From contig JACRFR010000018.1 in assembly GCA_016212635.1 (NCBI GenBank), positions 4,080 to 68,079 of the forward strand: 64,000 bases of DNA, written 5' to 3'. Shown in pieces: positions 5,927 through 63,754 of this stretch (its first letter is position 1; each line of letters opens with the position of its first letter). This stretch comes from Candidatus Liptonbacteria bacterium. Lineage in GTDB: Bacteria; Patescibacteriota; Minisyncoccia; UBA6257; 2-01-FULL-56-20. A program made the position numbers and the translations under genes. The notes beneath the pieces are model-generated. The model made no database searches and was not told the DNA's origin. It saw only the letters and a list, made by a program, of their open reading frames with translations.

Positions 5927-5937
5927 ATAAAGCTGGG

Positions 5938-6492
5938 CTAGATGATTGACGGAGCAACTCGACTTGATTGAAAAGTCCAACCTCGCTCTGTAACTAATTC
6001 CCATAAGTTAAGACATTTAACGCCAAATAACGGATCATCGCAAACATTTGGCAGCTTATAGTTCTCAGGATCAGTGCTACCACTGTGAGTTTCTTCAGAA
6101 ATGATTTTAAGTTTGTGTAGTTTGGCCTGAGCAATAAGCCATGGATCCGCATAGACATCACTAGCTTTGTTTTTATTATTAACAAAAACTTTATACGTCA
6201 CGGACATGCTCCTGATAATCTTTCCCTCTATATCCTCATCGTGATTCTTGAAAATATGCTCATTGGCATGAGCCCAATTGTAGAGTTCCTCGCCCTTCTT
6301 CCCGTCTTTCTTTATTTCCGCCAATACCTCAGCGTGGGAGATGATCACTCCTTCGGCCATCAGTTCTTTGATCCTTTCCCAGAGGCCAGGATTAACACTC
6401 TTTGATATCCACGGCGTTTCGCTGAAAATTGACATCAAGGAGCAACTATCAATGGTATATTCTGCGGGTTTAGAAAAGAGATCACCTGGCAT
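5938..6492 (-). CDS. PIN-like (DUF4411-like) putative nuclease, co-operonic with the upstream XRE-ImmA gene.
   Basis: 184 aa with an 11-nt overlap with the upstream gene. N-terminal YTIDSCSLMSIF and later conserved acidic residues are consistent with a PIN-like fold. The DUF4411 assignment is from memory of that family's association with ImmA/IrrE genes. Confidence 0.4.
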   Translation of the reverse strand: MPGDLFSKPAEYTIDSCSLMSIFSETPWISKSVNPGLWERIKELMAEGVIISHAEVLAEIKKDGKKGEELYNWAHANEHIFKNHDEDIEGKIIRSMSVTYKVFVNNKNKASDVYADPWLIAQAKLHKLKIISEETHSGSTDPENYKLPNVCDDPLFGVKCLNLWELVTERGWTFQSSRVAPSII

Positions 6493-7675
6493 GAGAGTGT
6501 ATTAGTTTTTCCAACCCAGGCAAATGCTTCATCTTCAATCCAAGGTAATCTGAGATTCCCGAATACGGTATTTTTTTCTGCTTGTAAGCCTCAAAAACAA
6601 GAGAGCTAAAACCCACGCCATTTTTTGACAAGATAGTCTTCAGGGAAAATCTCCCACCCTTCTTCCCATTCGGCCGGGGTTCACCATCCCATTTTTTTGT
6701 TTTGGCTTCGTAAATTGCCGAAGTAACATAATTGAATGTTAGCAACCTCCTCAAAATTACCACTCGGCTCACTTTGAAATCAAAAGCTATCCGCTCAATT
6801 TTAGAATCGAGGTCCTCGGGGGATATTTTTGTCTTATCTTTCAAAGTTCTATGCTTTAAGAATTCCGCCTCCGGTACCAAGAAGCTGGCGGCGAACTGGT
6901 TGCAAAAAACCTCAAGCTTATTTATCCCATTCTTGTGACCGCTGAAAGATTTGAAGTTGTTGCAAATACCGGCTTCACGTAGAAGAACGTGCGCAAATTC
7001 ATGCGCCAAAGAAAAGTTCTTTGCTCCTTCAGTATCCTTATTGTTCACAAAAACCAGATATGGCTGTTGGTCAGCGAAAGAGAAAGCACGACAATCTGTT
7101 ATTGGAAAACTATCGTGAAGACCGCTTTTTAGGGTTATCACGCCCGCACTTTCGATTTTGTTCCGTAGGTACTCGAAGAAATCCTCGTACTTCTTGAAAC
7201 CAAATTGCTCATTTGCCGAAATCAAAAGGTCAGCTCTTATGTTTTCCGCTAATTCTGAAGCGTTCTCATCTAAGGAATGCCGTGCATATTTAAAAAAAGG
7301 TCTTTCGCCGAGTTCTTCATGGAGATCTGCGGATACCTCTTGAACTCTTCTCGCTTTTCTAATAGCCAAGAGTGCCGCCGGAGATAAGAGCTTATTATCT
7401 TCCGAGTTGATAGTTCTGAGATCTGGCGGATCCTTTTTTTCTTTCGGTGGACCATCGAGAAAGAATACGGCCAGGGGTCGTTTATATATTTCCGCGAGTT
7501 TTCTTACCTGTGCGAAGGTCGGCTGAGCAATTCCATTTTCCCACTCCTTAATGAGATCGGGGGTGACTTCTTTCCATGATTCAACCCAATTGGCCAGCAA
7601 AATTTCCATTTTTGGGCCAAATCTTTTTTCACGTGCCCATTTCAATACTACAGGTTCAAATCTCAAATCTGCCAT
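6482..7675 (-). CDS. Fusion of an XRE-family HTH domain and an ImmA/IrrE (COG2856, M78-like) zinc metallopeptidase.
   Basis: N-terminal HTH (QPTFAQVRKLAEIYKRPLAVFF) and an HEFAHVLL HExxH motif mid-protein. 397 aa. Confidence 0.8.
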   Translation of the reverse strand: MADLRFEPVVLKWAREKRFGPKMEILLANWVESWKEVTPDLIKEWENGIAQPTFAQVRKLAEIYKRPLAVFFLDGPPKEKKDPPDLRTINSEDNKLLSPAALLAIRKARRVQEVSADLHEELGERPFFKYARHSLDENASELAENIRADLLISANEQFGFKKYEDFFEYLRNKIESAGVITLKSGLHDSFPITDCRAFSFADQQPYLVFVNNKDTEGAKNFSLAHEFAHVLLREAGICNNFKSFSGHKNGINKLEVFCNQFAASFLVPEAEFLKHRTLKDKTKISPEDLDSKIERIAFDFKVSRVVILRRLLTFNYVTSAIYEAKTKKWDGEPRPNGKKGGRFSLKTILSKNGVGFSSLVFEAYKQKKIPYSGISDYLGLKMKHLPGLEKLIHSHAR

Positions 7676-7836
7676 AACTAAATTATAGCAATAAACAGCC
7701 CCGAAAAAACATCTGGTAAAAACTTATAACCGCCTTTCAAAGAGGTAATCTAGACAGCTTCTTAGCGGTTATTTACTCTTTCGTACTCGTTCTATTCGTC
7801 TTGACTGGTTAGAAGAAAGTCGGCATTTAAGCCTCA

Positions 7837-7880
7837 TGGTCGGTCTCACTGCGTTGTGCCCTCGAGAGGAATCGAACCCA
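7837..7880 (-). repeat. Degenerate copy of the 3' half of tRNA-Arg plus its 16-nt downstream flank (att-like direct repeat).
   Basis: GGTTCGATTCCTCTCGAGGGCACAA + CGCAGTGAGACCGACC aligns with the T-arm/acceptor/3' flank of the tRNA at 9084-9127. The flank is identical and the tRNA part has about 6 mismatches. The T-stem can no longer pair, so it is not a functional tRNA. Confidence 0.55.
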
Positions 7881-7956
7881 GTAAAACTCTCCCCTAGATG
7901 ACGGCGAATTGCCACGGGGCAGACACGTATTGTTGGTTACAGTACTGAAGTTTTAT

Positions 7957-9051
7957 TTAAAGAGTTGCAAACAACCCCAACTCTATACCGATGTCGTATG
8001 CCTCATCCACAGAACACGTCATGATTTTTCTATAGCTTTTCCGGCCAAACCTTTTTTCGACAGCTCTGGCCAGGGGCAATATTTTGCCATCAATCCTTGC
8101 CTGCTCTGCGAGATTTTGGAACTCCGGGATTTCTGCTCTTAGGCGTGAGACAAGAAGGAAAGCGGCGGCAGATTGGGAGCCAAAACTTACAGTACTACCG
8201 TCAAAATTAAATATCCTCCGAGATTCTTCCGGGAAGTTGTCTAGCCGCGGATCTTTTTCGGCCACATAGTTCAGTAACTTAGCGTACAAAGCTTTTCCTT
8301 TGGGAAATTGTGTTTGGAGTAAGTTGTCTGCGTCTTCTTCTGCGAGCATGGCTAGACCCTCTTCGACCGCCGGAGTTTGTAGACCTGCCTCGCATCTAAT
8401 ATATCCCAAACCTCTCCGCTCCAAAGGCTTTACGCTATCGAAAACATGTTCATTTTCTCCAGTCGCCTTGTTTCGCACGGTGCGAAACAGAAGAGAAAAC
8501 GGTGCGGCATCGTGGTATAGCTCATGTAGAACTTGGCGGGCCTCAATATATTCTCTTACTGCTTTTGCGGCACCCGGCCTAGTCATTCCGCCTAAACTTT
8601 TTTCATCTGTCATGGCAATTGGGTGAAAATGATCATCATCCCTTATTCTTTGATCGAGAGAACTGGGCACAAGTTTTTCTTTTGTTAAATTATGTAGGAC
8701 GATATATCCGAAGCTAGTGCCCGCCCGGAGGGCAGTTATGTTCCCCTCCTCCATAGAAGATGGGTTCCGCAATTTAAAGATGCGTTCTTGTTCTGTCCAT
8801 CGTATTGGACTCAACACACCAAATTTACAAAATCGCTTCTCGTGCCACCGTCTAGCCCGGGAACTGAAATTTCGCATCTCGACCGACAGTTCAATAGTTC
8901 CTTCTTTGGCCGTTCGTGCTACTTCGTTCATTGTCACTTTAACACCCATTCTAGTTCTGGAGATTCTTTGCCTCTCTTTCTTGTCTAGTAAGTCTGCAGA
9001 CCGTTCCTTGTTGAGAATAAAGTTTTCTCCTGGCCTGGTAAAGTTTCTCAT
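7957..9051 (-). CDS. Hypothetical protein (364 aa) lying between the tRNA-derived direct repeats.
   Basis: Long ORF with no motif I can assign. Bounded by the 7837-7880 and 9084-9127 repeats. Confidence 0.5.
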   Translation of the reverse strand: MRNFTRPGENFILNKERSADLLDKKERQRISRTRMGVKVTMNEVARTAKEGTIELSVEMRNFSSRARRWHEKRFCKFGVLSPIRWTEQERIFKLRNPSSMEEGNITALRAGTSFGYIVLHNLTKEKLVPSSLDQRIRDDDHFHPIAMTDEKSLGGMTRPGAAKAVREYIEARQVLHELYHDAAPFSLLFRTVRNKATGENEHVFDSVKPLERRGLGYIRCEAGLQTPAVEEGLAMLAEEDADNLLQTQFPKGKALYAKLLNYVAEKDPRLDNFPEESRRIFNFDGSTVSFGSQSAAAFLLVSRLRAEIPEFQNLAEQARIDGKILPLARAVEKRFGRKSYRKIMTCSVDEAYDIGIELGLFATL

Positions 9052-9100
9052 AATAATTGCTGCATGCTTGTATTATTGCGCCTCGGTCGGTCTCACTGCG

Positions 9101-9175
9101 TGGTGCCCCCGGCAGGAATCGAACCTGCATCACCTCCTTCGGAGGGAGATATCCTATCCGTTGAACGACGAGGGC
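9101..9175 (-). tRNA. tRNA-Arg (anticodon CCG), 75 nt with encoded CCA.
   Basis: Folded by hand. Acceptor GCCCTCG/CGGGGGC, D-arm, anticodon stem TCTCC/GGAGG with loop CTCCGAA (U33, A37), 4-nt variable loop, T-arm GCAGG-TTCGATT-CCTGC, discriminator A, CCA. Confidence 0.85.
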
Positions 9176-10306: not shown

Positions 10307-10320
10307 GGGGAGTTAAGTGG

Positions 10321-10504
10321 AACCCATCTCCAAAGTAGGAAATTAATAAAGGTAGAGGAAGGGATTTTGCCCAAAATGGTTATTTTCGGCTGCAAAACCT
10401 GAAAACCTCCTAGAAATAGCTACGGCTATTCCTTCGTCAGTTTTCATGTTTTTCGCTCGAAAATTTCTCATTTTGGCCTAAAACCTACTTTGGAGATGGG
10501 TTCT
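10321..10504. repeat. 184-bp near-perfect long palindrome (foldback) with 20-bp perfect terminal arms GAACCCATCTCCAAAGTAGG / CCTACTTTGGAGATGGGTTC.
   Basis: The arms are at 10321-10340 and 10485-10504. The interior is itself largely self-complementary (TTTTGCCCAAAATGG...CATTTTGGCCTAAAA) with a central GAAATAGC-TACG-GCTATTCC stem. It overlaps the 3' end of the RNase gene. Confidence 0.6.
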
Positions 10505-11847
10505 AGCTCTATAGTTTCATTTTCCCGAGGCACACGGCTGGTCGCGCCCAGGTCGTGGTGAATTTTGCCGGCCAGGGTCTCGCTGGCTCCCGCCTCCCCC
10601 TGAACCACGAACACGCTTTGGAGCGCGGCGGCTCGGGGGCGGAGCCAAGACAAGAGGCGCGGCTGGTCGGCGTGCGCGGAATAAGCAGTGATCGAACGGC
10701 GCTCGCAGCGGATCGGCACTCGTTCCCCGAAGATGTGAACCTCCGGAGCGCCTTCCATTATTTGGCGGCCCAGGGAGGACACCGATTGATAACCCACAAA
10801 GAGAATCATACTTTGGGGATCGGGGAGGTAGCGCAGCTCGTGGTGGAGAATGCGGCCGCCTTGGGACATGCCGGAACCGGCAATAATGATCTTGGGCGGC
10901 GGCACATTATTGATGTCTTTGGACTGTTCCGTGGTCAGAGTCAGGCGCAACCCGGGAAAGTTTAAGATGTCGTCTCCGGAGCGAACCAGGCTGGAGGCTT
11001 CGCGATTGAAATAATTCTCGTATTTCTTGTAAACGGCGGTCATTTTGATCGCGAGCGGGCTGTCCAGAAACACCGGCACCCGAGGCACGCCGCGATGCTC
11101 AAAGGCCTCGTTCAAATGATACAAGATTTCTTGGGTCCGTTCGAGAGCGAAGGTGGGGATTAGGAGGGTGCCACGGCGAGCTATGGTGTCGCGCACGGCC
11201 TGCTCCAAGTCTTCTTGCCGGTTCGCTTCGCGCTCATGGACCCGGTCCCCATAGGCAGATTCAACCACGCAATGATCCGCCTCGGGCATGGGTTCGGTGG
11301 ATCGGACAATGGGCGCGGGACTGTTGCCCAGGTCGCCGGAGAAAACAATGGTGCGTTCGCGCGAGCGGATTTGGATAAAAGCAGAACCGAGAATGTGACC
11401 GGCATCGAAAAACTCCACATTGAACGGGCCGAGGGTAAGCGACTGGTGATACGGCAACGGCAACCACCGCTGCATAGTTCGATCCACGCTATCGATGGAG
11501 CATAAAGGGGAGCTGGCTTCGCGTTCCGCCTCTTTGCACAACACGTGCTCCGAGTCGATCAGGATAAGTTCCGCCAGGTCGCGGGTGGGCGGGGTGGAAT
11601 AGATCGAGCCGCGGAATCCCTCCCCGACCAGCTTGGGCAGGCGTCCCACATGATCCAGGTGCGCGTGAGTTACCAGCAGGGCGTTGATGTCCCGCGGCTG
11701 GAAGGCAAAAGGTTGGAAGTTTTCCCTCTCCGCAAAGTGACCGCCTTGGATCAGTCCGCAGTCGACCATCAGTCGAAAACCCCCCGATTCCAAGAGATAG
11801 TTGGCGCCGGTGACGCTCCCCGCTCCGCCGTAAAAAGTGATGCACAT
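10468..11847 (-). CDS. MBL-fold beta-CASP ribonuclease (RNase J / CPSF-like).
   Basis: HAHLDHVGRLP (HxHxDH) metallo-beta-lactamase motif and beta-CASP-like C-terminal region. 459 aa. Confidence 0.75.
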   Translation of the reverse strand: MCITFYGGAGSVTGANYLLESGGFRLMVDCGLIQGGHFAERENFQPFAFQPRDINALLVTHAHLDHVGRLPKLVGEGFRGSIYSTPPTRDLAELILIDSEHVLCKEAEREASSPLCSIDSVDRTMQRWLPLPYHQSLTLGPFNVEFFDAGHILGSAFIQIRSRERTIVFSGDLGNSPAPIVRSTEPMPEADHCVVESAYGDRVHEREANRQEDLEQAVRDTIARRGTLLIPTFALERTQEILYHLNEAFEHRGVPRVPVFLDSPLAIKMTAVYKKYENYFNREASSLVRSGDDILNFPGLRLTLTTEQSKDINNVPPPKIIIAGSGMSQGGRILHHELRYLPDPQSMILFVGYQSVSSLGRQIMEGAPEVHIFGERVPIRCERRSITAYSAHADQPRLLSWLRPRAAALQSVFVVQGEAGASETLAGKIHHDLGATSRVPRENETIELEPISKVGFRPK

Positions 11848-15301: not shown

Positions 15302-15348
15302 CCGCTACTCGTGAATTAAAGCGAACGGGGAGCGCCACCCGAATTTCG

Positions 15349-18385: not shown

Positions 18386-19711
18386 TCATAGATCCGCGGG
18401 GATCTCGTGGCTGGGCGCCAGCTTGGGATCGGTCGGCAGGGTAAAAGAGAAAATGCTGCCTCGGTTGACTTCGGATTGGATGCTAAACTCCCCGCCGTGC
18501 GCCTTGATGATACTCTGAACGATAAATAAACCCAAGCCCGAGCCTTTGGTTTCGTATTTCAGGGCGTTTTCCGCGCGGAAGAATTTTTGTCCGATCTTGT
18601 CCAGCTCCTGCGGCGGGATGCCGATCCCGGTGTCGCGCACGGACAGTTTTTGGTAGGGGCGATCGGGCAGCTGTTCCAGCTTAACGATGATTTCCCCGTC
18701 TTTGATGTTGTAACGCACCGCATTTTCCAGCAGATTATTGATCACAATGGAGAGTTTTTGGGAATCTGCGATTGCGGGCGGCAATGGATCTTTGGGCCGA
18801 TCGAAGTACAATTTGAGGCCGGCTTGTTGGACCAGGGGTAAAAGCTGGGTCATAAGCTTGTCCGCCAGGGCGGCGAGATCCAGCGGTTCTTTCTGGTAGC
18901 CAAAGTGGCCCTCTTCGATTTTGGCAATGGACAGCAGGTCTTCGGTAATTTTCGCCAATTCCCGGCTGGATCCCAGAGTGGCTTGAATAATGGTTTGCGC
19001 GCCGGGGTTCAGAGTAGAGTCGCTCGCGAGCGCCTCCAGGGCCCAAATAATTTCCGTGATGGGCGTACGCAGTTGATGCGAAGCTACGGTGATAAAGTCA
19101 TTTTTGGAGCGGATCGACGCCAATTCCCGAGTGCGGTCGTGGACGATCTTAACAAACCCAATCAGGTTGCCCGATTCGTCGCGGATCAGCGAGGTTGCCA
19201 CCCGGAGTTCCATCGCGGGCAACTCGAAAGACAGGTCGATTATCTCCGGATAGGTACCGGCCTCGGAGCGGGGCGCCATCACGGGCGCGAGCGCCGGGTA
19301 GATAACTTGGGTCAGGCGCTGCAGTTCCGGCTTTTGGGCATCCCGCGGTTCGATCTTTTGCCGCACAACTTGGTCCGCGGTCACGCGAAACAACTTCTCG
19401 GCCGCGGGATTAAAGAAAATGATCCGGAAACTTGGGTCATAAGCGATCAGGGCGTCGCTCAAGCCGAATATAATATGGCGCAATTCGTTTTGCTCCCGCG
19501 TCACCTCCGGGCCCAGCGCCGCGGCGCGGCCAGTCTGGATAAAAGCCAGTCCGCCCAAGACCAGGAGCACAATCATGCCCAAATATCGCCAGGGGGCGGG
19601 CAGCCAAGCCAGCCCAATTAGAACCATCGCCCAGAGCGGGAGGGAAAACCAAAACACCCGCATGGCAGGCAAACGGATCGCTTCTTGTATTTGTTGACGC
19701 AATTTATCCAT
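18386..19711 (-). CDS. Sensor histidine kinase (transmembrane N-terminus, PAS-like domain, HisKA, HATPase_c).
   Basis: HQLRTPITEI H-box, and a GSGLGL region in the ATPase domain. The start was set at ATG 19711 (MDKLRQQ) because the longer ORF extension runs into the inverted-repeat element. Confidence 0.8.
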   Translation of the reverse strand: MDKLRQQIQEAIRLPAMRVFWFSLPLWAMVLIGLAWLPAPWRYLGMIVLLVLGGLAFIQTGRAAALGPEVTREQNELRHIIFGLSDALIAYDPSFRIIFFNPAAEKLFRVTADQVVRQKIEPRDAQKPELQRLTQVIYPALAPVMAPRSEAGTYPEIIDLSFELPAMELRVATSLIRDESGNLIGFVKIVHDRTRELASIRSKNDFITVASHQLRTPITEIIWALEALASDSTLNPGAQTIIQATLGSSRELAKITEDLLSIAKIEEGHFGYQKEPLDLAALADKLMTQLLPLVQQAGLKLYFDRPKDPLPPAIADSQKLSIVINNLLENAVRYNIKDGEIIVKLEQLPDRPYQKLSVRDTGIGIPPQELDKIGQKFFRAENALKYETKGSGLGLFIVQSIIKAHGGEFSIQSEVNRGSIFSFTLPTDPKLAPSHEIPADL

Positions 19712-19765
19712 AACCAGATCAACCGTGCAGCTCGAGATGGCCCCAGTCCTTCCCGGTACAGACCT

Positions 19766-19897
19766 GGCGCTGTTCGAAAACCCCAGGTTTGTCATTCCGG
19801 CGAAAGCCGGAATCCAGGTTTTCTTAGTCACTGGATCCCGGGTCAAGCCCGGGATGACGCTCGGCAAGCGGGGGAATCAATGTTTTCGAACAGCGCC
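19766..19897. mobile_element. MITE-like element copy A: 132 bp with 16-bp perfect terminal inverted repeats GGCGCTGTTCGAAAAC and a 7-bp flanking duplication (CAGACCT). It is inserted in the 3' end of polA.
   Basis: It is identical (1 mismatch) to 60587-60718. The interior has two hairpin arms, GTCATTCCGGCGAAAGCCGGAATCCAG and CTGGATCCCGGGTCAAGCCCGGGATGAC. The original polA C-terminus (..VKVCTGKDWGHLELHG*) can be reconstructed across the insertion. Confidence 0.8.
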
Positions 19898-22367
19898 TGC
19901 AGACCTTGACTGATATCGGCACGCCAAGTTCTGGAGCGGCACGCTCCATCGCCTCGCGCAGCACGGGTATGGTTTCTTCTATCTTATCATCGCGTATCTG
20001 GAACAGCAATTCATCATGGATCGAGAGAAGCAGTTGGACCGTACCGTCCCAGGAGTTGCGGCGCACTAATTCCGCGCGCGCTCGAATCATGGCCAGTTTG
20101 ATCAGGTCGGCTCCGGAACCTTGCACGGGATGGTTGATCGCGGCCCGTCCCGCAGCCGCGACCAGGCGCGGGGAGTTGGAGATGAACTCCGGAAAGTAGC
20201 GCCGGCGGCCAGTCAAGGTTTGGGTATAACCCAGAGTACGGGCGGTTTGTTGGGTCGCTTCCTGCCAATCGCGGACGCCCCGAAAATGCTGGAAATACGC
20301 GGCGATAAACTGGCGGGCGGCGGCCCGGTCGATGCCTCCCGTCCGGGCAAAAGCGCTTTCACCCATGCCGTAGATCAAACCGAAGTTCAGGGTTTTGGCG
20401 ATCCGCCGATCCGCATCCGTTACGGCGGAGAGTGGTTTGCCCAAGATCTCGGCGGCAGTGGCACGATGCACGTCGCCACCCTGCCGAAAAACTTGGAGCA
20501 GCTGCGGGTCGCCGGAGAGCACTGCCAGGATGCGCAATTCCAATTGGGAATAGTCCAGAGTAACCAGGGTGTGCCCCGGGTCTGACTGGAAGACACTCCG
20601 CAGCGCCGGCGCCCAAGGCGAGTCGCGGGGAATGTTCTGTAAGTTTGGGTTTTGGGAACTTAAGCGTCCGGTGGCGGTGCCGGTCTGGATAAATTCGGTG
20701 TGAGCGCGGCCTATGGAACGAGCCAGTTCCAAAAGCGGCAGGATGTAGGTGGATCGAATCTTGAAGTGTTCTCGATAAGCCAAGATTGAGGATATGGCCG
20801 GATGTCGGTCCGAGAGTTCGGCCAAGCGCTCCGCGTCGGTGGAACGGCTGGCTCTGACCGCGCTGGGCGGCAGAAGTTTCAGCTCCTCGAAGAGCACGGT
20901 AGCCAGTTGCGCCGGGGAGTTCAGATTGAACTCGTGTCCTATTGATCTATAGATTTTTTGTTCCAGCTCTTGGATGGCCCGGCCTAGTTCGTGCTGGATG
21001 GTTACGAGTCGAGCCGCATCCAAACGAATGCCGCGTTGTTCCATCTCCGCCAAGATCCGGAGCACGGGCATTTCCACTTGTTCGAAAACAGCAAGTAGCT
21101 GATTGTGCTGCAGTTTAGTTCTTAGAGCGGCGTACAGCTCCGCCAAATCGCGCTCGTTTACCCTGTTAGAATCTTCGTTTCTAACGGGGTTTAGCCGGCC
21201 ATCGCGTCCCAAAATACGCGCCGCGACCGTGGCGGGTGCATAATCTTTAAGGTCGGGCTCGAGCAGCCAAAAGGCCACGCCTAAATCGGCGTAGGGCGGT
21301 ACCAAGTCTTGACCTTGTGCCCAGGCCCGTTTCAGGGCGGTTTTTAGATCAAAACCGATCTTGATCCGGCGAGGATCATTTTGCCCGGGCCAGGCCGCCG
21401 TTTGGCTGGAAATTACCCAGCAAGCCCGCGATTCGTCTCCGGCGTCCACGGGGGAAGAAGTTGGAGGGGCGAAAAGGCCGCCGAGAGTCCGGGGAGGCGG
21501 GGTGGGGGTGGTTGGTTTAGGAACCAGAGAATCGAAACCAAGCTGGCGGAAGGTGGCCGCGGGCTCGCCGGGCGCATGGTCTCGCACCCGGAGTTGTTCC
21601 AGGTTCTGGATCGGCAGTTCGGCATCGCGTTTTAAGGTGACTAGTTCGCGGGAAAGCAGTATTTGTTTCCGGAAAGGTTCCAGTTTAGCCCGCAGTTTGG
21701 CATCTTGGGACGATTGCTGAAGCAGCGCATCCAGGGTGTGATATTCGGCCAGCCAACCAGAGGCAGTTTTAGGCCCAACTCCGGGCACACCCGGAACATT
21801 GTCGGAGGCATCGCCCACTAACGCTTTATAATCCACCAGCTGATTCGGGGCCAGGCCATACCGTTCCCGAACGGCGGCGGAGTTGTACACAATGGTGTCG
21901 CTGATCCCTTTTTTAAACGTGCGGATGGCTATGTGGCCGTCGTCGACCAGCTGCAGAGAGTCTAGGTCGCCGGTCAGGACTATGATCTTTAAATCCTCTT
22001 CTCGCCGAAATTTTTCCGCCAGGGTCGCGATAATGTCATCCGCTTCCACGCCGGGACATTCCACGCTGGTGATGCCCAAGATTGCGAAGAGGTCCCGGGC
22101 GGCAATGATCTGGGTTACCAATTCTCCGGGAGTGGGTGGACGCTGGGCTTTATAGGCCGGAAATTGGAGTTTGCGGAAGGTAGGTTCGGGACGGTCGAAC
22201 GCGGCGGCGGCGAAATCCGGTTTGCCTTCGCGCCAAAGTTTCAAGAGGATGCGGGCCACGCCGTAGAGCGCTCCGGTGGGACGGCCATCCGGAGCCGAGA
22301 GCGGCGGCAGGGCGTGAAACATCCGGTGGATGAGCGAGTTGGCGTCTAAGAGGAGGAGGGTTTTCAT
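19824..22367 (-). CDS. polA: DNA polymerase I (5' nuclease + polymerase domains). The 3' end is remodeled by the MITE insertion.
   Basis: N-terminal 5'-3' exonuclease motifs, and polymerase motifs DYSQLELRILA, FGLIYGMG, LLSIHDELLF. The last 24 aa (CRRCSKTLIPPLAERHPGLDPGSSD) are encoded by the inserted element. Confidence 0.95.
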   Translation of the reverse strand: MKTLLLLDANSLIHRMFHALPPLSAPDGRPTGALYGVARILLKLWREGKPDFAAAAFDRPEPTFRKLQFPAYKAQRPPTPGELVTQIIAARDLFAILGITSVECPGVEADDIIATLAEKFRREEDLKIIVLTGDLDSLQLVDDGHIAIRTFKKGISDTIVYNSAAVRERYGLAPNQLVDYKALVGDASDNVPGVPGVGPKTASGWLAEYHTLDALLQQSSQDAKLRAKLEPFRKQILLSRELVTLKRDAELPIQNLEQLRVRDHAPGEPAATFRQLGFDSLVPKPTTPTPPPRTLGGLFAPPTSSPVDAGDESRACWVISSQTAAWPGQNDPRRIKIGFDLKTALKRAWAQGQDLVPPYADLGVAFWLLEPDLKDYAPATVAARILGRDGRLNPVRNEDSNRVNERDLAELYAALRTKLQHNQLLAVFEQVEMPVLRILAEMEQRGIRLDAARLVTIQHELGRAIQELEQKIYRSIGHEFNLNSPAQLATVLFEELKLLPPSAVRASRSTDAERLAELSDRHPAISSILAYREHFKIRSTYILPLLELARSIGRAHTEFIQTGTATGRLSSQNPNLQNIPRDSPWAPALRSVFQSDPGHTLVTLDYSQLELRILAVLSGDPQLLQVFRQGGDVHRATAAEILGKPLSAVTDADRRIAKTLNFGLIYGMGESAFARTGGIDRAAARQFIAAYFQHFRGVRDWQEATQQTARTLGYTQTLTGRRRYFPEFISNSPRLVAAAGRAAINHPVQGSGADLIKLAMIRARAELVRRNSWDGTVQLLLSIHDELLFQIRDDKIEETIPVLREAMERAAPELGVPISVKVCRRCSKTLIPPLAERHPGLDPGSSD

Positions 22368-34005: not shown

Positions 34006-34593
34006 CAAACAACCTCCACAATCTATTCTGTATCCCAAGCTAGCGATTAATATTTTTAAAGGTTATTTTTTATCAAAGGTCGGCGGCTACCATTTTTGTG
34101 GAATGTCCACCGAGTTACTAAATATCCGAATGGCATTTCGAGGCTTGAGTGATGAAGACACTGGCGGTGAAGAGGAGGTGGGAGGTGGTTTTGGTGTCCC
34201 TAGTAAAGGCAATGGTGACGATGATGATGGCGTGGAAGAACCAAAGGAAGAACTAGAGGAGGGCGCGGAAGCAGATGAAGATGACGATGATTTGGAGGGA
34301 GGGGATTCTGAAATCTAGGCTGGTTGGTTCGATGTAGTTCTGGGGCGGCGGAGTAGGCAAGGCGGGAATCCAGAATTTCCGGGCCTAGATTCCCTGCCGG
34401 CCGTCAGGCGGGCGGATATGGCCTGCTGACCATTCCGGAATGACAGACAAATACATAGTTTCGTAATTCAAGGTCAGATGGCGCGGCCTGGCGCTATTCG
34501 GAAACGTCAAAAAGTTATTCCCTGAGCCCGTCGAAGGGTAGCTTTTGGGCGGGTACATGGCATGGCCCTCGACAAGCTCGGGCAATAAAATCG

Positions 34594-37182
34594 GTGGTTT
34601 CCGAACAGCGCCACGCGGCCTCGACAGTTGAGGTGGTTTTTCCGATAATGCATGATATGCGGTTGACCAGAGAACGTTCCCCCGAAGGGATAAGGCACAA
34701 GTTGCGTTTGTTTGGGCATCGTCTATCTACCCCACCAGAGAATACAAGTTCTCTAGTGGGGTCTGCCGCTCCCAAAAGAGAACGTCCCAGGAAACCCGGA
34801 CGGCGGGCCCGCCGAATTTGGTTGTGGTTGGTTTTGGTGGTGGGGGTGATTGCGGTGCTCGCCCTTATTTGGGTGGCCTTATTGCTCCAAGACCTGCCGT
34901 CTACGGAACAAATTTTGAGCCGCCGGGTAAGTCAGTCGACCAAGATCTACGACCGCACCGGACAGGTGGTTTTATATGAGATTGGGGGGGATCAAAAACG
35001 AACCGTTATTTCCGGGGAGGAAATACCCCAGTCGCTCAAAAACGCGACTATCGCTGCAGAGGATGAGCGGTTCTACTCTGATTCCGCCATCGACTACCGC
35101 GGTTTGTTGCGCGCGCTATGGACAAACTTGAGGAGTGGCCGGGTGGTTCAGGGCGGGTCCACCATCACCCAGCAGTTGGCCAAAAACGCCTTCTTGACTT
35201 CGGATCAGACCCTAACCCGGAAGATCCGGGAGGTTTTCCTGGCGATCCGTTTGGCGCGCAACTACACCAAAGACCAGATCTTGGCCATGTACTTAAATGA
35301 GATACCTTACGGACCAACGATCTATGGAGTGGAGGGTGCGGGTCAGTTGTACTTTGGCAAACCCGCTCGTGATTTGAGTCTGGCCGAGAGCGCGGTTCTA
35401 GCCGCCCTGCCTAAGGCCCCGAGCCGTTTAGCGCCCGGCGGCAGCCACCAGGACGAACTTATTGCCAGACAGCGGACTATTTTGCGGAAAATGAACAGAT
35501 TGGGAATGATCTCGGCCGAGGAACTGGAGGTGGCGTTGAATGCCAAGCTTAGTTTTGTTCCGCCTACTCATGGGATCAAGGCGCCCCATTTTGTTTTCTG
35601 GGTGCAAGATTATTTGATCGAACGTTACGGGGAGGAGTTGGTTAGAAGCGGCGGCTTGCGAGTGATCACCACCCTGGACTGGGAGATGCAGCAGGCGGCG
35701 GAAAAGGCGGTGCGAGAGGGCGCGGAACGCAATCAAAAGTTGTACCAGGGACGGAATGCGGCCTTGGTCGCGGAAGATCCCCGCACCGGGCAGGTCTTAG
35801 CCCTGGTCGGCTCCCGAGATTACTTTGACCTGGAACATAACGGCAACTTTAATGTGGCCGCTCAAGGACTGCGCCAGCCCGGATCGACCCTTAAACCATT
35901 CGTCTACTTGACCGCTTTCCAAAAAGGCTATTCTCCAGACTCGGTGGTTTTCGATGTCCCGACTGAATTTGTGGCGCGCGACCCAGACTGTCCGCCGGAA
36001 CCGGTTTTTGAGATAGAGAGTCCCACTTGTTTCCATCCCCAAAATTTTGATGATTCTTTTCTGGGTCCGGTTCCCTTCCGCCGCGCCTTGGCCCAATCCC
36101 GTAATATTCCAGCGGTGAAGGTTTTGTACTTGGTGGGATTCAAGGACGCCCTAACCAACGCCACTCGTTTTGGATTGACCACCCTAACTAACCCGGCCGA
36201 GTATGGCTTGTCTTTGGTCTTGGGCGGTGGCGCGGTCCGTTTAGTAAATTTAGTGGAGGCCTATTCAGTTTTAGCGGGAGACGGCGTGCGTCATGCCCAA
36301 GGATCTATTTTGGAAGTTAAGGATAGTTCGGGCGCAATCTTAGAGACTTATCGCGACAGCGCGGAGCGAGTGGCAGAAGCGCAACCGGTGCGGCTGGTGA
36401 ATAACATATTAACCGACCTGGACGCGCGATCTGGCTTGTTCCACAGCAGTCTGGCGCTCACTACTATACCCGGACATGATATTGCCATTAAAACCGGAAC
36501 TTCCAATGACTACCGCGACGCTTGGGTGGTTGGTTACTCTTCCGCCTTGGTGGTGGGGGTTTGGGCGGGTAATAATAACAATCAGCCCATGCAGCGCCAG
36601 GGCTCCAGCCTTTTGGCGGCGGTTCCGATCTGGCACAGCTTCGCAGTCGAGGCCTTCCCTCGGGTCCCACCGGAAAAATTTCCCGCGCCGGAACCGGTCG
36701 CGCGCTCCGACAAACCGATGTTCAGTGGTCAAGTGGTCAGTAATAATCAGATCCATTCGCTTTTGTATTACGTCAACCGAACCGATCCCACCGGGCCGGC
36801 CCCGGAGCGCCCGGAGCGTGATCCCCAGTTCTATAATTGGGAAATGGGTGTTTTGCTTTGGGCCCAAAAGAATGTTCCGGCTTTAGTAGCCGGCAATAAT
36901 GCCACCTCGTCCCCGCAAATTAGTTTCGCTTCTCCCGCCAATGGCAGTTCTTTTGTTGATTCCATCAACTTAACCGCGTCGGTGGCTTCCGCCACGCCCT
37001 TGAAGCGAATCAGTATTTCTTTTAACGGGGTCTTGATTCAAGAGGTGGCTCCGGAGTCACCCGGACCATACCAGATCAACTGGTCTTTTGTTCCCGCCAA
37101 CCCCCAGCCTCAAAACATTTTAGAAATTGAGGCGCGAAACGCGAGTAGCACCAGTCGGGAGGGAATAATTTTATACCACTAG
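34594..37182 (+). CDS. Class A penicillin-binding protein (glycosyltransferase + transpeptidase) with a C-terminal Ig-like extension.
   Basis: IAAEDERFY, GGSTITQQLAKN (GT51 motifs), transmembrane anchor, transpeptidase region. The start may be at internal ATGs 34651/34657. Confidence 0.88.
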   Translation: MVSEQRHAASTVEVVFPIMHDMRLTRERSPEGIRHKLRLFGHRLSTPPENTSSLVGSAAPKRERPRKPGRRARRIWLWLVLVVGVIAVLALIWVALLLQDLPSTEQILSRRVSQSTKIYDRTGQVVLYEIGGDQKRTVISGEEIPQSLKNATIAAEDERFYSDSAIDYRGLLRALWTNLRSGRVVQGGSTITQQLAKNAFLTSDQTLTRKIREVFLAIRLARNYTKDQILAMYLNEIPYGPTIYGVEGAGQLYFGKPARDLSLAESAVLAALPKAPSRLAPGGSHQDELIARQRTILRKMNRLGMISAEELEVALNAKLSFVPPTHGIKAPHFVFWVQDYLIERYGEELVRSGGLRVITTLDWEMQQAAEKAVREGAERNQKLYQGRNAALVAEDPRTGQVLALVGSRDYFDLEHNGNFNVAAQGLRQPGSTLKPFVYLTAFQKGYSPDSVVFDVPTEFVARDPDCPPEPVFEIESPTCFHPQNFDDSFLGPVPFRRALAQSRNIPAVKVLYLVGFKDALTNATRFGLTTLTNPAEYGLSLVLGGGAVRLVNLVEAYSVLAGDGVRHAQGSILEVKDSSGAILETYRDSAERVAEAQPVRLVNNILTDLDARSGLFHSSLALTTIPGHDIAIKTGTSNDYRDAWVVGYSSALVVGVWAGNNNNQPMQRQGSSLLAAVPIWHSFAVEAFPRVPPEKFPAPEPVARSDKPMFSGQVVSNNQIHSLLYYVNRTDPTGPAPERPERDPQFYNWEMGVLLWAQKNVPALVAGNNATSSPQISFASPANGSSFVDSINLTASVASATPLKRISISFNGVLIQEVAPESPGPYQINWSFVPANPQPQNILEIEARNASSTSREGIILYH

Positions 37183-46867: not shown

Positions 46868-46946
46868 TCTGTCATTCCCGCGCAGGCGGGAATCCAGGCC
46901 CCAGGGCAAGTTGCATACTGGATCCCCGCATTCGCGAGGATGACAG
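46868..46946. repeat. Imperfect 29-bp-arm inverted repeat related to the MITE interior (CTGTCATTCCCGCGCAGGCGGGAATCCAG ... CTGGATCCCCGCATTCGCGAGGATGACAG).
   Basis: It shares the GTCATTCC-G/CGC-GGGAATCCAGG core with the 19.8-kb and 60.6-kb elements but lacks their terminal inverted repeats. Confidence 0.5.
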
Positions 46947-55438: not shown

Positions 55439-58366
55439 TCAATCGTCAATAGTTATGTAGTCCTCTTCCTCCGCGCGGGACTCAAAATTCAGCAGCTCGG
55501 GCGGCAGCTCGCCTAAAAACCGGGAGGGAATGTCGAAATAAGACAGGGTTAGAGAATGCCTGGCCCGGGTCATGCCGACATACAACAAACGGCGCTCCTC
55601 TTCCAGCTCCGCGTCACTGCCCAAAGACCAGACATGAGGCACTAGTTCTTCCTTGCAGCCCACGATAAAAACCCGGTCGAATTCCAAACCCTTGGCCGCA
55701 TGCAGGGTCATCAGTGCCACTGGCGCGACCCGATCTTCTTGCTTGTCGCTTGTCGCTTGTCGCTTGTCGCTATCTGCGTCCGTGTCCTGAACCAATGCTA
55801 CTTTTTCTAGGAAGTCGCTGATGGTCGGAAAGGATCGCGCAAAAGCGAGCAACTCCGCGATGTTCTCGCGGCGCTCCCGATGATCCGGGAAAGAATGTTC
55901 TAAATATGTCAGGTAGCGGGTGTGGCTCAAGAAATATCGGAACACTTGGCTGGGCGACTGGCTAGCCAACCCTTCTGAACCGGCTAGAAAGTTTTTGAAA
56001 CCCTGCTTGGTCAAAACCTTTTCCAATCGTTCAGTGCTCAATAGGTCTTTGGGGTTGGCAATAACTTTAAGCGCGGCCAGAATATCCTTAACCTCTCGGC
56101 GTTCATAAAACTTCAACCCTCCGAAGATCTGGTACGGTACATCCCGCTCCAAAAGCGCCTGTTCCAAAGCCCGCGACTGGGCATTGGTCCGGTAAAGTAT
56201 GGCCGTGGTTTGTCCGGTTCTCCTCGCTCTTCCCTCCTCGCTCTTCGCTATGTTTTCTGCCACCCATTTCGCCTCTTGGTCTTCATCTGTAAATTCCGCC
56301 AACCGGATCAATTCCCCTTGGGGATTTTCGGTCCACAAAGATTTGGCTTTCTGGCGGCGATTGTGCGCGATCAGGGCCGAGGCGGCCCGGATAATGTTGG
56401 CGGAGGAGCGGTAGCATTTTTCCAGGAGAACCACCTGCGCCTCCGGCCAGTCCTGTTCAAAATTGAGGAATATTTCGAAGTTAGATCCTCGCCAGCGGTA
56501 AATAGAATTGTGCACAACCAGCCGATTGGCCGTGTAATTATGAACCCCGGCCACTTCCAGGTCATAGACCCATCCGCGATACGATTCCCATTCCACCTTT
56601 TTTATCTCATCCTCGACCACGCGCCCGCCAATTTTTACCGCGACTTGCATGGAGGGACGAGCGTGAGCGGCCGGTTGCAGCAACATTCGCGGGCCGGCAG
56701 TTAATCGCGCCGTCCGGACCGTTTCTAGGCCGGGATCAAGGGGTTTTATCTTCCGCACCCAATTTTCCAAGACCGCACTGTCCATATTAGTCAGCTCCGT
56801 CCGCCAATCGGAATATTTGCCCCGCCTGGTAGTTAGGCCCAAGGCGGCCACTTTTTCCTTTAGCCGCTGATCGCGGGTATTGATGCTCAATCGGCTTAGG
56901 CCCCAAGGATGGAGTTTACTTTTGCGCTTGTCGTCGAACATGGTTAGGCGCAAGCGCAATCGGTGGCTAGCGAAACGAATTCCGCCCTGGGGCAGGTAGT
57001 GGGGCCAATTAAAATAAAGGTGGTGATCCGCCATCAGTTTTTTCACTCGCGCAACAGTGTCTATATTTTGGAACAATCGGTCAACTTGGTCTTGAGATAT
57101 AAGCATGGACCTGTTACCGGTGTCGAAAACCGTGGTGGGTATGCCGTACTGAAACGATAAATACGCCTCCCAATATTGGGCTTCCCCACGGCTAGCGCAT
57201 ACCCGCACGATCCACATCTTGTCTCCCCTTTCCTGGTTGCTCCTGACCCGTAGTCCTATTTGCGATACGCCTCCTTGGACCTTTCTTGCGCCTTTGGCCA
57301 AGCCGAGCCGGAAACCGCGATCGGAGCGGTACATAAGATATACATAATATATTTCTTCGCATAGTTTGAGGCGCAAGAAAATAATATGGTTGGGTGTCAG
57401 GCGTAGCGTTTGCCCGCGGGCGGTAGTGATTTTTACCAAAGAGCCGCGATAGAAAAACTTTTTAACTTTTTTCACTACACCCGAGCAAACGCCGCCGTTG
57501 CCGGAAGCTGACCAGATCCGGTTTCCCTGCCTTATCTCCCTTATCGGCCGCGGGCCGGCGGAGGTTAGAATTTCGGTGTCCGGCGGGACGCACTGATGAT
57601 CATCCCCCACGGCAGTTACCGAGCCAGTCGCCCCGGCCATAAGTCGCACCATCTCATACTGCATGTTATTCAGATCCTGATACTCATCGATCAACAAGTA
57701 GCGGGTTCTTTTTTGAACGCGCTGGCAGACCATTTTATCCGAGCTACATAGCTGGACAACTTGATAAACCAAGTCGTCCAAGTCAAAAGCGTTGTTTTCT
57801 TGCAGCGCCTGTTCGTAAGCCGCCCAAATTTGAGCTAACACTTGGTCCTTGGGATCTGCCGAGTCCGGGTCGGGCAGTATCGCGGTCCCTTCCTTGATCC
57901 GGCTCACGGCTTGGAGCAGGCCGGCGGGTGAAAAGCGCGTCGGGTTGATCTCCAGCCGCTTGAACAGTTTTTTCATGAGCTGCATCGCGTCGCCGTGATC
58001 GAAGATCGCGAAGTCGGCCGTTCGACCCAAGAGCCGCGCCTCGAATCGCAGCAGGCGAGCGCCGAACGCGTGAAAAGTTCCAATAAACGGAGTCCCCCGC
58101 TCTTCGCTGTTCGCTCTTCGCTCTTCGCTTCCCACTACGCGTTCGATCATCACCCGCGCGGCCTTATTGGTCAAAGTTAGCGCGCAGATCTGGTCTCCCG
58201 GAATGCCGCGCCGGAGCAAGTTCTGGAGCCGGCTCATTAAGGTGTGGGTTTTGCCCGTGCCCGCCCCCGCCACAATTAATAGAGGCCGATCCGAAGCCTC
58301 CACGGCTTGTTTCTGCTGGGGGTTTAGACCGGAAAAACGGCTGGGAGAATTTTCGGGGATGTCCAT
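55439..58366 (-). CDS. UvrD/PcrA/Rep-family SF1 helicase containing an intein in motif III and three heptamer-repeat insertions.
   Basis: AGAGTGKT (motif I), LIDEYQD (motif II), VGDDHQ|[intein]|SIYRWRGSNFE (motif III), then motifs IV-VI. Confidence 0.9.
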   Translation of the reverse strand: MDIPENSPSRFSGLNPQQKQAVEASDRPLLIVAGAGTGKTHTLMSRLQNLLRRGIPGDQICALTLTNKAARVMIERVVGSEERRANSEERGTPFIGTFHAFGARLLRFEARLLGRTADFAIFDHGDAMQLMKKLFKRLEINPTRFSPAGLLQAVSRIKEGTAILPDPDSADPKDQVLAQIWAAYEQALQENNAFDLDDLVYQVVQLCSSDKMVCQRVQKRTRYLLIDEYQDLNNMQYEMVRLMAGATGSVTAVGDDHQCVPPDTEILTSAGPRPIREIRQGNRIWSASGNGGVCSGVVKKVKKFFYRGSLVKITTARGQTLRLTPNHIIFLRLKLCEEIYYVYLMYRSDRGFRLGLAKGARKVQGGVSQIGLRVRSNQERGDKMWIVRVCASRGEAQYWEAYLSFQYGIPTTVFDTGNRSMLISQDQVDRLFQNIDTVARVKKLMADHHLYFNWPHYLPQGGIRFASHRLRLRLTMFDDKRKSKLHPWGLSRLSINTRDQRLKEKVAALGLTTRRGKYSDWRTELTNMDSAVLENWVRKIKPLDPGLETVRTARLTAGPRMLLQPAAHARPSMQVAVKIGGRVVEDEIKKVEWESYRGWVYDLEVAGVHNYTANRLVVHNSIYRWRGSNFEIFLNFEQDWPEAQVVLLEKCYRSSANIIRAASALIAHNRRQKAKSLWTENPQGELIRLAEFTDEDQEAKWVAENIAKSEEGRARRTGQTTAILYRTNAQSRALEQALLERDVPYQIFGGLKFYERREVKDILAALKVIANPKDLLSTERLEKVLTKQGFKNFLAGSEGLASQSPSQVFRYFLSHTRYLTYLEHSFPDHRERRENIAELLAFARSFPTISDFLEKVALVQDTDADSDKRQATSDKQEDRVAPVALMTLHAAKGLEFDRVFIVGCKEELVPHVWSLGSDAELEEERRLLYVGMTRARHSLTLSYFDIPSRFLGELPPELLNFESRAEEEDYITIDD
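56507..57592 (-). other. Intein, 362 codons (residues 259-620 of the helicase), inserted between Q and S of helicase motif III.
   Basis: It starts CVPPDTEIL (Cys1) and ends ...YDLEVAGVHNYTANRLVVHN, followed by Ser+1. Block B TPNHIIF is present. Boundary codons were verified on the nucleotide sequence: TGC at 57590-57592, AAT at 56507-56509, TCT at 56504-56506. Confidence 0.8.
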
Positions 58367-60437: not shown

Positions 60438-60575
60438 GTGCCCAGATTATACCCACCCCCTAATTGTGTCAATAGTCATCCACAAAACACAAAATATCCT
60501 TATAAAGTAAGTATAAAACAGACACATGCTATTGACAATGTACTTATATATGATATAATCCCAGTAGGAGGTAGT

Positions 60576-61028
60576 ATGACCTACAGGGCGCTGTTCGAAA
60601 ACCCCAGGTTTGTCATTCCGGCGAAAGCCGGAATCCAGGTTTTCTTAGTCACTGGATCCCGGGTCAAGCCCGGGATGACACTCGGCAAGCGGGGGAATCA
60701 ATGTTTTCGAACAGCGCCGACCTACAAAGTTATCGATCGGTTGCCGCCGCGCGGTGGTGCATTTGACCCCGATGTCGCAAAGGCCGTGGCGGCCGGCTAC
60801 GATTTGACAATTCACTACACGTTTCAGGAGGGAGAAGGCTGGTCTTGTTTCGTTGCGGTTCGGGACCGACATGATAATCCGCCGAACTATACCAAGATTT
60901 TAGCGGACCCTCGCTTCGTGAACGCCCTGGAAGTTGCAGGGTTGGCCAACTTTCGGTACACAGGCGGCGCGGAAAGCGACGAGGAATTGATCAAGGCGCT
61001 GAAAGAGATATTCCCGACCCTGTACTGA
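60576..61028 (+). CDS. Small hypothetical protein whose codons 4-50 are supplied by an in-frame MITE insertion. It is preceded by consensus TTGACA-16-TATAAT and an AGGAGG SD.
   Basis: MTY[RALFENPRFVIPAKAGIQVFLVTGSRVKPGMTLGKRGNQCFRTAPTY]KVIDRLPPRGG... The bracketed 47 aa are the element plus its 8-bp TSD. Confidence 0.5.
   Translation: MTYRALFENPRFVIPAKAGIQVFLVTGSRVKPGMTLGKRGNQCFRTAPTYKVIDRLPPRGGAFDPDVAKAVAAGYDLTIHYTFQEGEGWSCFVAVRDRHDNPPNYTKILADPRFVNALEVAGLANFRYTGGAESDEELIKALKEIFPTLY
60587..60718. mobile_element. MITE-like element copy B (132 bp, 16-bp TIRs) with an 8-bp target-site duplication GACCTACA at 60578-60585 and 60719-60726.
   Basis: Near-identical to 19766-19897. The TSD was verified on both flanks. 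Confidence 0.85.
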
Positions 61029-63219: not shown

Positions 63220-63754
63220 TTCTCTTTTTGTATAAGCCGACGCCCTGGTCGGCTCCCCGACAGAATCGTCGGGGTTGCGAACAGTGTTACCAGCAAGAAG
63301 TTGCGTAGCAATCCTCATTCTACTCGCCATTCTACTCGCCCCCTTCACGCATCGCCTCCCCACCCAAATCACACGATTGTCCGATCGTCCAATCGTGTGA
63401 TTTGGCAAACGGTTACAACTAATTTGCAACGAAAACGAATCCGTAACGAATATGTTTGGATAACTTACTCCATGCCCCGATACATATCGGATCTACGGGG
63501 TGTTACCAAGCGGAAGTGGTCCAATCTAAAATAATTCAGCCGCTGTCCTCCAGCGCCTTCCTAATCTGAAGATAGTGCTGGCCACAGTGGCTCCTGTCTC
63601 CCTGCAATGTGTCGATGGTTTCTGTTACGCACACGGTTGGACGATCATCCAACCGTGTGCGTAAGGAATAGCGGTGCAAACTAACACGAAGCGCTTGTCG
63701 CCGCTTGCCCGCTTCGAGTATTGTTTTCACCGTGAAAATGTATAAAATGAAAAT

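Follow-up and report, generated by a model that had tools for sequence, protein, structure and literature searches.

A probable non-autonomous transposon with a hairpin-pair core at the start of a small gene in Candidatus Liptonbacteria

A 132-bp sequence that lies in frame at the very start of the small gene HY978_01460 is very likely a non-autonomous DNA transposon (MITE) that was inserted recently. The gene belongs to a Candidatus Liptonbacteria MAG and lies on a 78,060-bp contig; a stretch of 64 kb, hereafter called the window, was analyzed. The MITE reading, proposed in an initial annotation of the same DNA, is supported by the inverted ends of the sequence, the duplications that flank it, its multiple copies, the polA tail that is restored when one copy is removed, and sites that are empty in a relative. 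The in-frame insertion itself is unsurprising and is an ordinary kind of event. Modest additional interest comes from the CPR host, from the damaged end of polA, and from an Ssn-type hairpin pair in the element that is shared unchanged with a distant bacterium.

The element and the small gene that carries it

The features around the insertion, designated copy C, are as follows.

60532-60559, plus strand: sigma-70-type promoter, TTGACA-16-TATAAT (12 of 12 positions, TG before the -10 hexamer)
60566-60571, plus strand: Shine-Dalgarno sequence AGGAGG, 4 nt ahead of the ATG (60576)
60576-61028, plus strand: small gene HY978_01460 (NCBI), 150 aa
60578-60585, plus strand: left target-site duplication GACCTACA, in codons 1-4 of the small gene
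60587-60718, plus strand: MITE copy C, 132 bp, with inverted ends at 60587-60602 and 60703-60718
60719-60726, plus strand: right target-site duplication GACCTACA, directly 3' of copy C

The small ORF starts with ATG ACC TAC A, followed by one G and then by the 132-bp block. The ends of the block, GGCGCTGTTCGAAAAC on the left and GTTTTCGAACAGCGCC on the right, are complementary at 16/16 positions, and the same ends are found in copy A, which lies in polA. The sequence GACCTACA is present exactly twice in the 64-kb window, both times abutting copy C, with the additional G at 60586 between the left duplication and the element. It had been claimed from the sequence that a 132-bp element one nucleotide off the polA copy, bounded by a perfect 8-bp duplication, is inserted near codons 2-4 of a small gene with a consensus promoter and AGGAGG. 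All of these points were borne out; alignment of 60587-60718 to 19766-19897 gives 99% identity, and only position 94 of the element differs (G versus A). The element and the duplication together add 141 nt (47 codons) and, as also claimed, introduce no stop, so that the ORF is open from 60576 to 61028. The element has no coding capacity, its longest open frame being 44 codons. It has no match in Pfam or NCBIfam, and no Rfam family lies across it. With a length of 132 bp and no transposase gene, it is of the kind called MITEs, which are well under 600 bp.

The product of the small gene reads MTY-RALFENPRFVIPAKAGIQVFLVTGSRVKPGMTLGKRGNQCFRTAPTY-KVIDR..., with the insertion after codon 3/4, and the reconstructed product before insertion would have 103 aa. 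No homologue of the small protein was found in 15 billion proteins, and a word-indexed search of 5.8 billion clusters found nothing but the protein itself. Exhaustive HMMER comparison with 1.84 billion representatives gave two matches only, both in repeat proteins (HNH_repeat; fn3/MBG repeats), which were judged spurious as homologues. The pre-insertion protein has no Pfam or NCBIfam match, Pfam also finds none in the 150-aa product, and an AlphaFold single-sequence model of the 102-aa protein is unusable (pLDDT 44.8). The codon usage of the gene scores 0.376, compared with 0.296 +/- 0.20 for the known genes of the window; the two remaining frames give -0.40 and -0.32, and a value as high as 0.376 is seen in only 1.5% of the off-frame segments. 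Because this gene-like codon usage is found together with a promoter and a ribosome-binding site, HY978_01460 is probably a real orphan gene. Being an orphan, it offers no relative for comparison, and the empty site of copy C is thus reconstructed rather than observed.

Further copies, empty sites and duplicated targets

Three copies of the MITE lie within the 64 kb. The features of the two others are listed below.

19719-19765, minus strand: native polA end (…C TGKDWGHLELHG stop), displaced by copy A but still intact downstream of it
19759-19765 and 19900-19906: duplication CAGACCT around copy A, 7 bp, exact
19766-19897, plus strand: MITE copy A, in the 3' end of minus-strand polA (19824-22367)
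34482-34489 and 34614-34621: duplication CGCGGCCT around copy B, 8 bp, exact
34490-34612, plus strand: MITE copy B, 123 bp, diverged, intergenic, 5' of the PBP1 gene

Copies A and C are 41 kb apart in the window. The unit that was copied is the whole 132 bp, and beyond the GGCGCT ends, where the duplications lie, A and C are no longer identical. Since at least two almost identical copies are present in the genome, the element moved recently. Copy B was found by a mismatch-tolerant search of the window for the end sequence; it has the same inverted ends, with 1-2 mismatches, around a different core that is also an inverted repeat. The earlier remark that both copies are inside genes holds for A and C, but the third, diverged copy is intergenic.

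The insertion of copy A in polA can be undone in silico. The element replaces the last 12 residues of the polymerase and supplies its own stop, so that polA gains 24 foreign residues, RRCSKTLIPPLAERHPGLDPGSSD, before the stop at 19824-19826. After deletion of the 141 nt from 19766 to 19906, polA encodes 835 aa ending in VKVCTGKDWGHLELHG; the Pfam DNA_pol_A match then ends at profile position 380 of 381 (373 with the element) and gains 10.5 bits. The restored C-terminus is the GKDWGHL tail, which is conserved in relatives and aligns to the extreme C-termini of solved family A polymerases, e.g., SAGRSWGHL in Pol nu. Among the 119 polA relatives compared, which are from CPR and at most 51% identical, G..W is found near the C-terminus in 105, mostly in a GKDWGHL-like form, and the tail encoded by the element is absent from all 119. 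The insertion is recent, because the displaced tail at 19719-19765 is still intact. Only 7 nt separate the native polA stop (19719-19721) from the start codon (19709-19711) of the PAS/histidine-kinase gene that follows, and copy A shifts the stop 105 nt upstream; translational or transcriptional coupling with the kinase gene may change.

Empty sites were observed in L135 (GCA_016190325.1), a syntenic Liptonbacteria MAG whose gene order matches the window for TsaE-polA-histidine kinase and for YebC-RuvC-acidic ORF-PBP1. Its polA ends ...VKVAAGKDWGHLTPVNG. No element is present at the polA/kinase junction or in the RuvC-PBP1 spacer, and L135 has no match to the MITE end sequence. Thus, the sites of copies A and B are empty in a relative. 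The RuvC-PBP1 spacer of the window contains ~250 nt of apparently repeat-derived DNA, with no such element in the spacer of L135, and decayed SRM-like hairpin halves (GCGGGAATCCAG ... CATTCCGGAATGACAG) lie at 34360-34445, immediately 5' of copy B.

Members of the family were also sought outside this genome. A two-end pattern scan of metagenomes gave 3 contigs (L121, L122 and L123), and no viral contig matched. The copy on L123, an unrelated contig, has identical ends and the same core with unrelated linkers; it is intergenic, beside a promoter-like TTGACA, and is flanked by a 7-bp duplication, GGAGACC. In L121 and L122, these ends enclose another hairpin pair, and the element lies 5' of a gene. 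One and the same element is present on both contigs; its right flank is identical between them and its left flank differs, which suggests either that copies recombined or that a join was made at the repeat during assembly. When genome contigs were scanned for just one 16-nt end, 120 loci were obtained; every one had a single match and lacked a second end, and these look like chance matches. In total, only five family members were seen.

These copies bear on two other explanations of the 132 bp. In the first, the sequence would simply be a conserved part of the coding region in some gene family, as its stop-free translation in the small gene might suggest; the initial annotation expected neither further copies nor empty sites in relatives in that case, and both were found. 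The same DNA is on the opposite strand in polA and intergenic in L123, the same ends enclose a different core upstream of PBP1, 0/119 polA relatives have the element, and protein matches to the peptide are limited to ORFs of 44-52 aa that were called over hairpin repeats. With opposite-strand, intergenic and changed-core copies refuting it, we give this explanation practically no credence. In the second, the repeat was wrongly joined into two genes during assembly. The source is indeed a MAG, and repeats are known to cause chimeric joins. However, each copy is flanked by its own duplicated target, which a chimeric join would not create, and the gene sequence picks up exactly after the element at both sites, which makes an artefact extremely unlikely.

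Under the MITE reading, the duplications can be tabulated. Their exact lengths are 8 bp for copies C and B and 7 bp for copy A and L123, in agreement with the range of 7-9 bp expected beforehand. If the duplication of copy A is read as 9 bp, TACAGACCT/TGCAGACCT, 8 of 9 positions match, and the mismatch is a synonymous TGT/TGC change in the polA frame. A uniform 9-bp duplication was rejected, since one mismatch per copy arises in that reading, and longer inverted ends including CCT were rejected because the right ends do not fit. Between end and duplication there are 0-2 odd bases, at one junction; A, B and C have one or two of them, which is unusual for very recent insertions. At A, B and L123, i.e., 3/4 clear sites, G(A/G)CC(T/C) adjoins the left end and YGAC(A/T)G (YGACWG) follows the element. 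GACCT is present in the target of copy C as well, although the register is not the same. The suggested target preference for GACCT-like sites is plausible, but the support is limited to 4-5 sites.

The hairpin core and the mobilization of the element

The core of copy C is occupied by two hairpins, and a similar pair is found elsewhere in the window.

46870-46945, plus strand: further NTS/SRM hairpin pair, intergenic, without GGCGCT ends
60611-60638, plus strand: left NTS/SRM-type hairpin TGTCATTCCGGCGAAAGCCGGAATCCAG, core of copy C
60652-60680, minus strand: right NTS/SRM-type hairpin TGTCATCCCGGGCTTGACCCGGGATCCAG, core of copy C

The Neisseria Transformation Sequence (NTS), CGTCATTCCCGCGMAVGCGGGAATCYRG, contains the dRS3 repeat, and its hairpin is bound and cut, only as ssDNA, by the GIY-YIG protein SsnA, which modulates transformation (Chenal et al., 2025; PMC11893778). 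The same paper defines the degenerate Ssn-related motif (SRM) and describes ssn genes as typically flanked by SRM hairpins on both sides, with NTS-ssnA-NTS resembling an insertion sequence; its text makes no mention of CPR or Patescibacteria (PMC11893778). In copy C, the two hairpins form an inverted pair 13 nt apart; the top strand carries tGTCATTCCGGCGAAAGCCGGAATCCAG, the bottom strand tGTCATCCCGGGCTTGACCCGGGATCCAG. As in NTS/SRM and the Neisseria dRS3/NIME repeats, the core arms match the SRM pattern, and they nearly match the NTS consensus, from which their stem differences are compensated. The SRM pattern, HGTCWYN(0-2)YYVSBRHN(0-5)WNVSBRGN(0-2)RNCYNB, oriented by the GTCAT...ATCCAG flank, has 6 matches in the window vs 0.41 expected. 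The six are three inverted pairs, in copy A, in copy C and at 46870-46945; copy B is without SRM hairpins. About 7 weak matches were found in ~0.9 Mb of unrelated bacterial loci. In 11 arms taken from the window, L123, L131, Neisseria and Sphingomonas, stem pairing is kept at 98.7% of positions and 3 of 7 pairs have compensatory changes (both sides), values reached by 0/500 shuffles. The DNA folds of the core hairpin arms have energies of -9.0 and -9.3 kcal/mol. The core of copy C thus matches the motif that Ssn nucleases cut, and is a candidate substrate of these enzymes.

The arms are also found in distant bacteria. By blastn against plasmid records, the left arm hits N. gonorrhoeae and the right arm Sphingomonadaceae (26/26), and both Neisseria and Sphingomonadaceae are SRM-rich taxa. 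Upstream of groES in another bacterium there is the same hairpin pair, in a different inverted-repeat shell, and neither arm has changed (27/27 and 28/28); this host carries fadB-like, ada and groESL genes, which is not a CPR-like gene set. A search with the element peptide gave five ORFs of 44-52 aa on hairpin repeats in the other bacterium, a count that is not a census, as the query itself was not returned. As for the pair at 46870-46945, its left arm contains an exact Neisseria dRS3 (ATTCCC-N8-GGGAAT), and its shell is different, with short ACTTACA-like inverted ends and no clear duplication. On a Sphingomonas hankookensis plasmid (L133, 2945-3027), an SRM pair is placed exactly between convergent TonB-dependent receptor and TerC genes; SRM pairs may double as bidirectional terminators.

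SRMs flank ssn genes on both sides in that work (PMC11893778); here and in related loci they are inverted pairs. There are also differences from the described loci. Unlike SRM-ssn loci, the window has no visible ssn gene: a search for the GIY...YIG motif in all frames found no GIY-YIG ORF and no ssn candidate. Unlike NTS, the pair is placed in a shell with inverted ends and a duplication, and inside coding sequence; NTS are rarely intragenic, with 2% in N. meningitidis (PMC11893778).

The occurrence of identical arms in a different shell of a non-CPR-like bacterium, and of a third shell at 46870-46945, raises the question of whether the hairpin pair itself is mobile. It would then be a gene-less derivative of SRM-ssn-SRM, moved via ssDNA by a GIY-YIG Ssn nuclease, with GGCGCT ends that are incidental. 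This would parallel REP sequences and their IS200/IS605-like transposases, and would suit the published likening of NTS-ssnA-NTS to an insertion sequence. However, A and C are alike over the entire 132 bp, with similarity ending at GGCGCT next to the duplications, and copy B has the same ends without SRM hairpins. Hairpin-guided single-strand transposition of the IS200/IS605 kind makes no target duplication, but duplications are present here, and the motif search of the window gave no GIY-YIG ORF. Independent mobility of the pair is very unlikely on these grounds. The element is a mosaic, in which the same ends enclose different cores in different copies and L123 shares ends and core, but not linkers; in copies A and C, the linker right of the core resembles the right arm of the copy B core. 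Most simply, hairpin modules would be inserted in a transposable shell or brought into it by recombination.

How would this shell be moved? Probably, a DDE-type transposase encoded elsewhere would recognize the inverted ends, act in trans, and make staggered cuts ~8 bp apart (7-9 bp). Judged by end consensus sequences and by one cited statement on 8-9-bp duplications, enzymes of the IS1595 or ISL3 family would fit the GGCGCTG end and the 8-bp duplication best. IS1595-family elements usually make 8-bp duplications, as does the ISL3 family, and the IS1016/Merlin group has 5'-GG ends and 8-9-bp duplications. The end consensus is GGCnnTG for ISPna2 and GGGgctg for IS1016 (7-9 bp), both of which we take to fit the (G)GGCGCTG ends. 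The 7-9-bp duplication and the GG... ends are compatible with IS1595 (ISPna2/IS1016 groups) or ISL3. In contrast to those insertion sequences, a transposase gene bounded by such ends was seen neither in the window nor in the 120 single-end loci, nor in the collections covered by the two-end pattern.

A further proposal is that the MITEs are vehicles that spread Ssn-recognition hairpins (NTS/SRM pairs) through genomes and between phyla, with the hairpins as selected cargo. We consider this rather unlikely, with some small chance of being right. If true, the identical arms in CPR and in an unrelated bacterium would be no coincidence, and the core of the element would be functional rather than palindromic filler. 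The hairpins could then mark DNA for single-strand cleavage during DNA uptake, on which CPR bacteria are thought to depend heavily.

Effects on genes and comparison with known elements

The element is stop-free in 2 of its 6 frames, both forward, and all three reverse frames have stops, which agrees with the claim that at least one frame and orientation is open. By our estimate, ~1.2 open frames of 44 codons are expected by chance at this base composition. Because the two observed open frames are about what chance predicts, the open frame is not a designed property, and the in-frame survival of the small gene is a one-in-three accident. Copy C and its gene are both in forward orientation, the frame that is used is an open one, and 47 N-terminal residues are added. 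Copy A is read by polA on the reverse strand, where every frame has a stop, and the in-frame outcome is thus seen in 1 of 2 intragenic copies. Both intragenic copies are at most ~12 codons from a gene end. Insertions at such positions would be the most likely to be tolerated, and selection would remove more disruptive ones in a gene-dense genome.

The transcript of the small gene may also be affected. The RNA of the element is predicted to fold with -76.1 kcal/mol (z = -7.3), into a stem that begins 11 nt downstream of the A of AUG; when a longer stretch is folded, the duplicated CCUAC is the predicted pairing partner of the ribosome-binding site. A comparable case is the Correia elements of Neisseria, whose transcripts form long hairpins that RNase III cuts at the inverted ends, with changes in host-gene expression. 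They are likewise MITEs of ~100-150 bp with inverted ends, but the ends are different, they carry IHF sites and promoters, and they duplicate TA. Since Correia elements are cleaved by RNase III at their inverted ends, reduced expression of the small gene is suggested. The predicted hairpin may well lower expression by hindering translation or attracting RNase III, a processing known for Correia and only predicted for the present element. The effect of copy C on the predicted small protein may be negative.

Alternatively, the 47 residues or the mRNA hairpin may have been co-opted, and now be an N-terminal module or a switch of translation or stability of the small gene. The frame is open, the original promoter, ribosome-binding site and ATG are intact, and in-frame MITE fusions are documented in other bacteria. 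Co-option would resemble what has been proposed for the Rickettsia palindromic elements (RPEs), reportedly treated by Ogata et al. in 2000. RPEs are ~100-150 bp long, lie in frame in protein-coding genes and add a peptide to the product (reviewed in PMC10969869). They are overwhelmingly in frame and encode conserved peptides, whereas here 1/2 intragenic copies is open, which is at chance level; clear inverted ends and duplications also distinguish the present element. Systematic in-frame insertion with a peptide conserved across many genes was not observed. Moreover, the near-identity to the polA copy and the intact duplication place the insertion so recently that there was no time for adaptation, 1/3 of random insertions would remain open, the element segment has neutral codon usage in the small-gene frame (score 0.03), and the same element damages a conserved motif of polA. 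Co-option is decidedly unlikely in view of these points.

With the sequence taken as a MITE, the closest described architecture is that of QMITE2 in Coxiella burnetii. QMITE2 is 150-190 bp long, with inverted ends and unique 7-9-bp direct repeats, and its core is a palindromic repeat that also exists alone, without the ends; its copies overlap gene 3' ends (Wachter et al., 2018; PMC5896051). The present element is likewise small (132 bp), with inverted ends, 7-9-bp repeats, a palindromic core that stands alone elsewhere, and overlap with a gene 3' end. [quoted passage not shown] That work describes no case of QMITE2 placed directly behind a start codon.

Other repeats and insertions were observed in the window. 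A 184-bp element at 10320-10503 has perfect 20-bp inverted ends, GAACCCATCTCCAAAGTAGG. On the minus strand, a beta-CASP/RMMBL nuclease gene (10468-11847) takes its final ~11 codons and its stop from the right arm of this element, which may represent a second MITE family that rewrites a gene 3' end. A 38-nt perfect hairpin, GAGGTCGGGCCTTAAGGA/TCCTCAAGGCCCGACCTC, is present in four copies, at 15348, 16508, 47600 and 54462, two of which share a 52-nt upstream extension; these could be REP-like or terminator-like repeats. Another gene of DNA metabolism, for a UvrD-type helicase of 975 aa (55439-58366, minus strand), likewise harbors a selfish insertion, an intein with Intein_splicing and Hint matches. 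An ORF at 7957-9051 is bracketed by a 41-nt direct repeat (7838 and 9085) that overlaps the tRNA gene at 9104-9175; close by are an M78 peptidase/DUF4411 pair and, at 4715-5926, a large serine recombinase; the region 4715-9175 looks like an integrated element or a remnant at a tRNA gene. Downstream of a cysteine-rich gene of 618 aa, two related perfect palindromes of ~40 nt (CACACGATTGTCCGA...) at 63364-63405 and 63625-63664, 260 nt apart, look like operator sites.

A full-text literature search found no paper describing MITEs in the Liptonbacteria/CPR group, and a literature search for the repeat peptides found nothing. The present copies document recently active MITEs in a CPR (Liptonbacteria) genome. 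In a group with very small genomes, these MITEs rewrite gene ends, including the conserved C-terminus of polA, which encodes DNA polymerase I. The short ORFs called across hairpin repeats, with peptides such as VIPAKAGIQ and WIPAFAGMT, are tied here to the NTS/SRM hairpin, which helps to clean up annotation. The finding also raises the question of whether SRM hairpins are spreading by riding on transposons.
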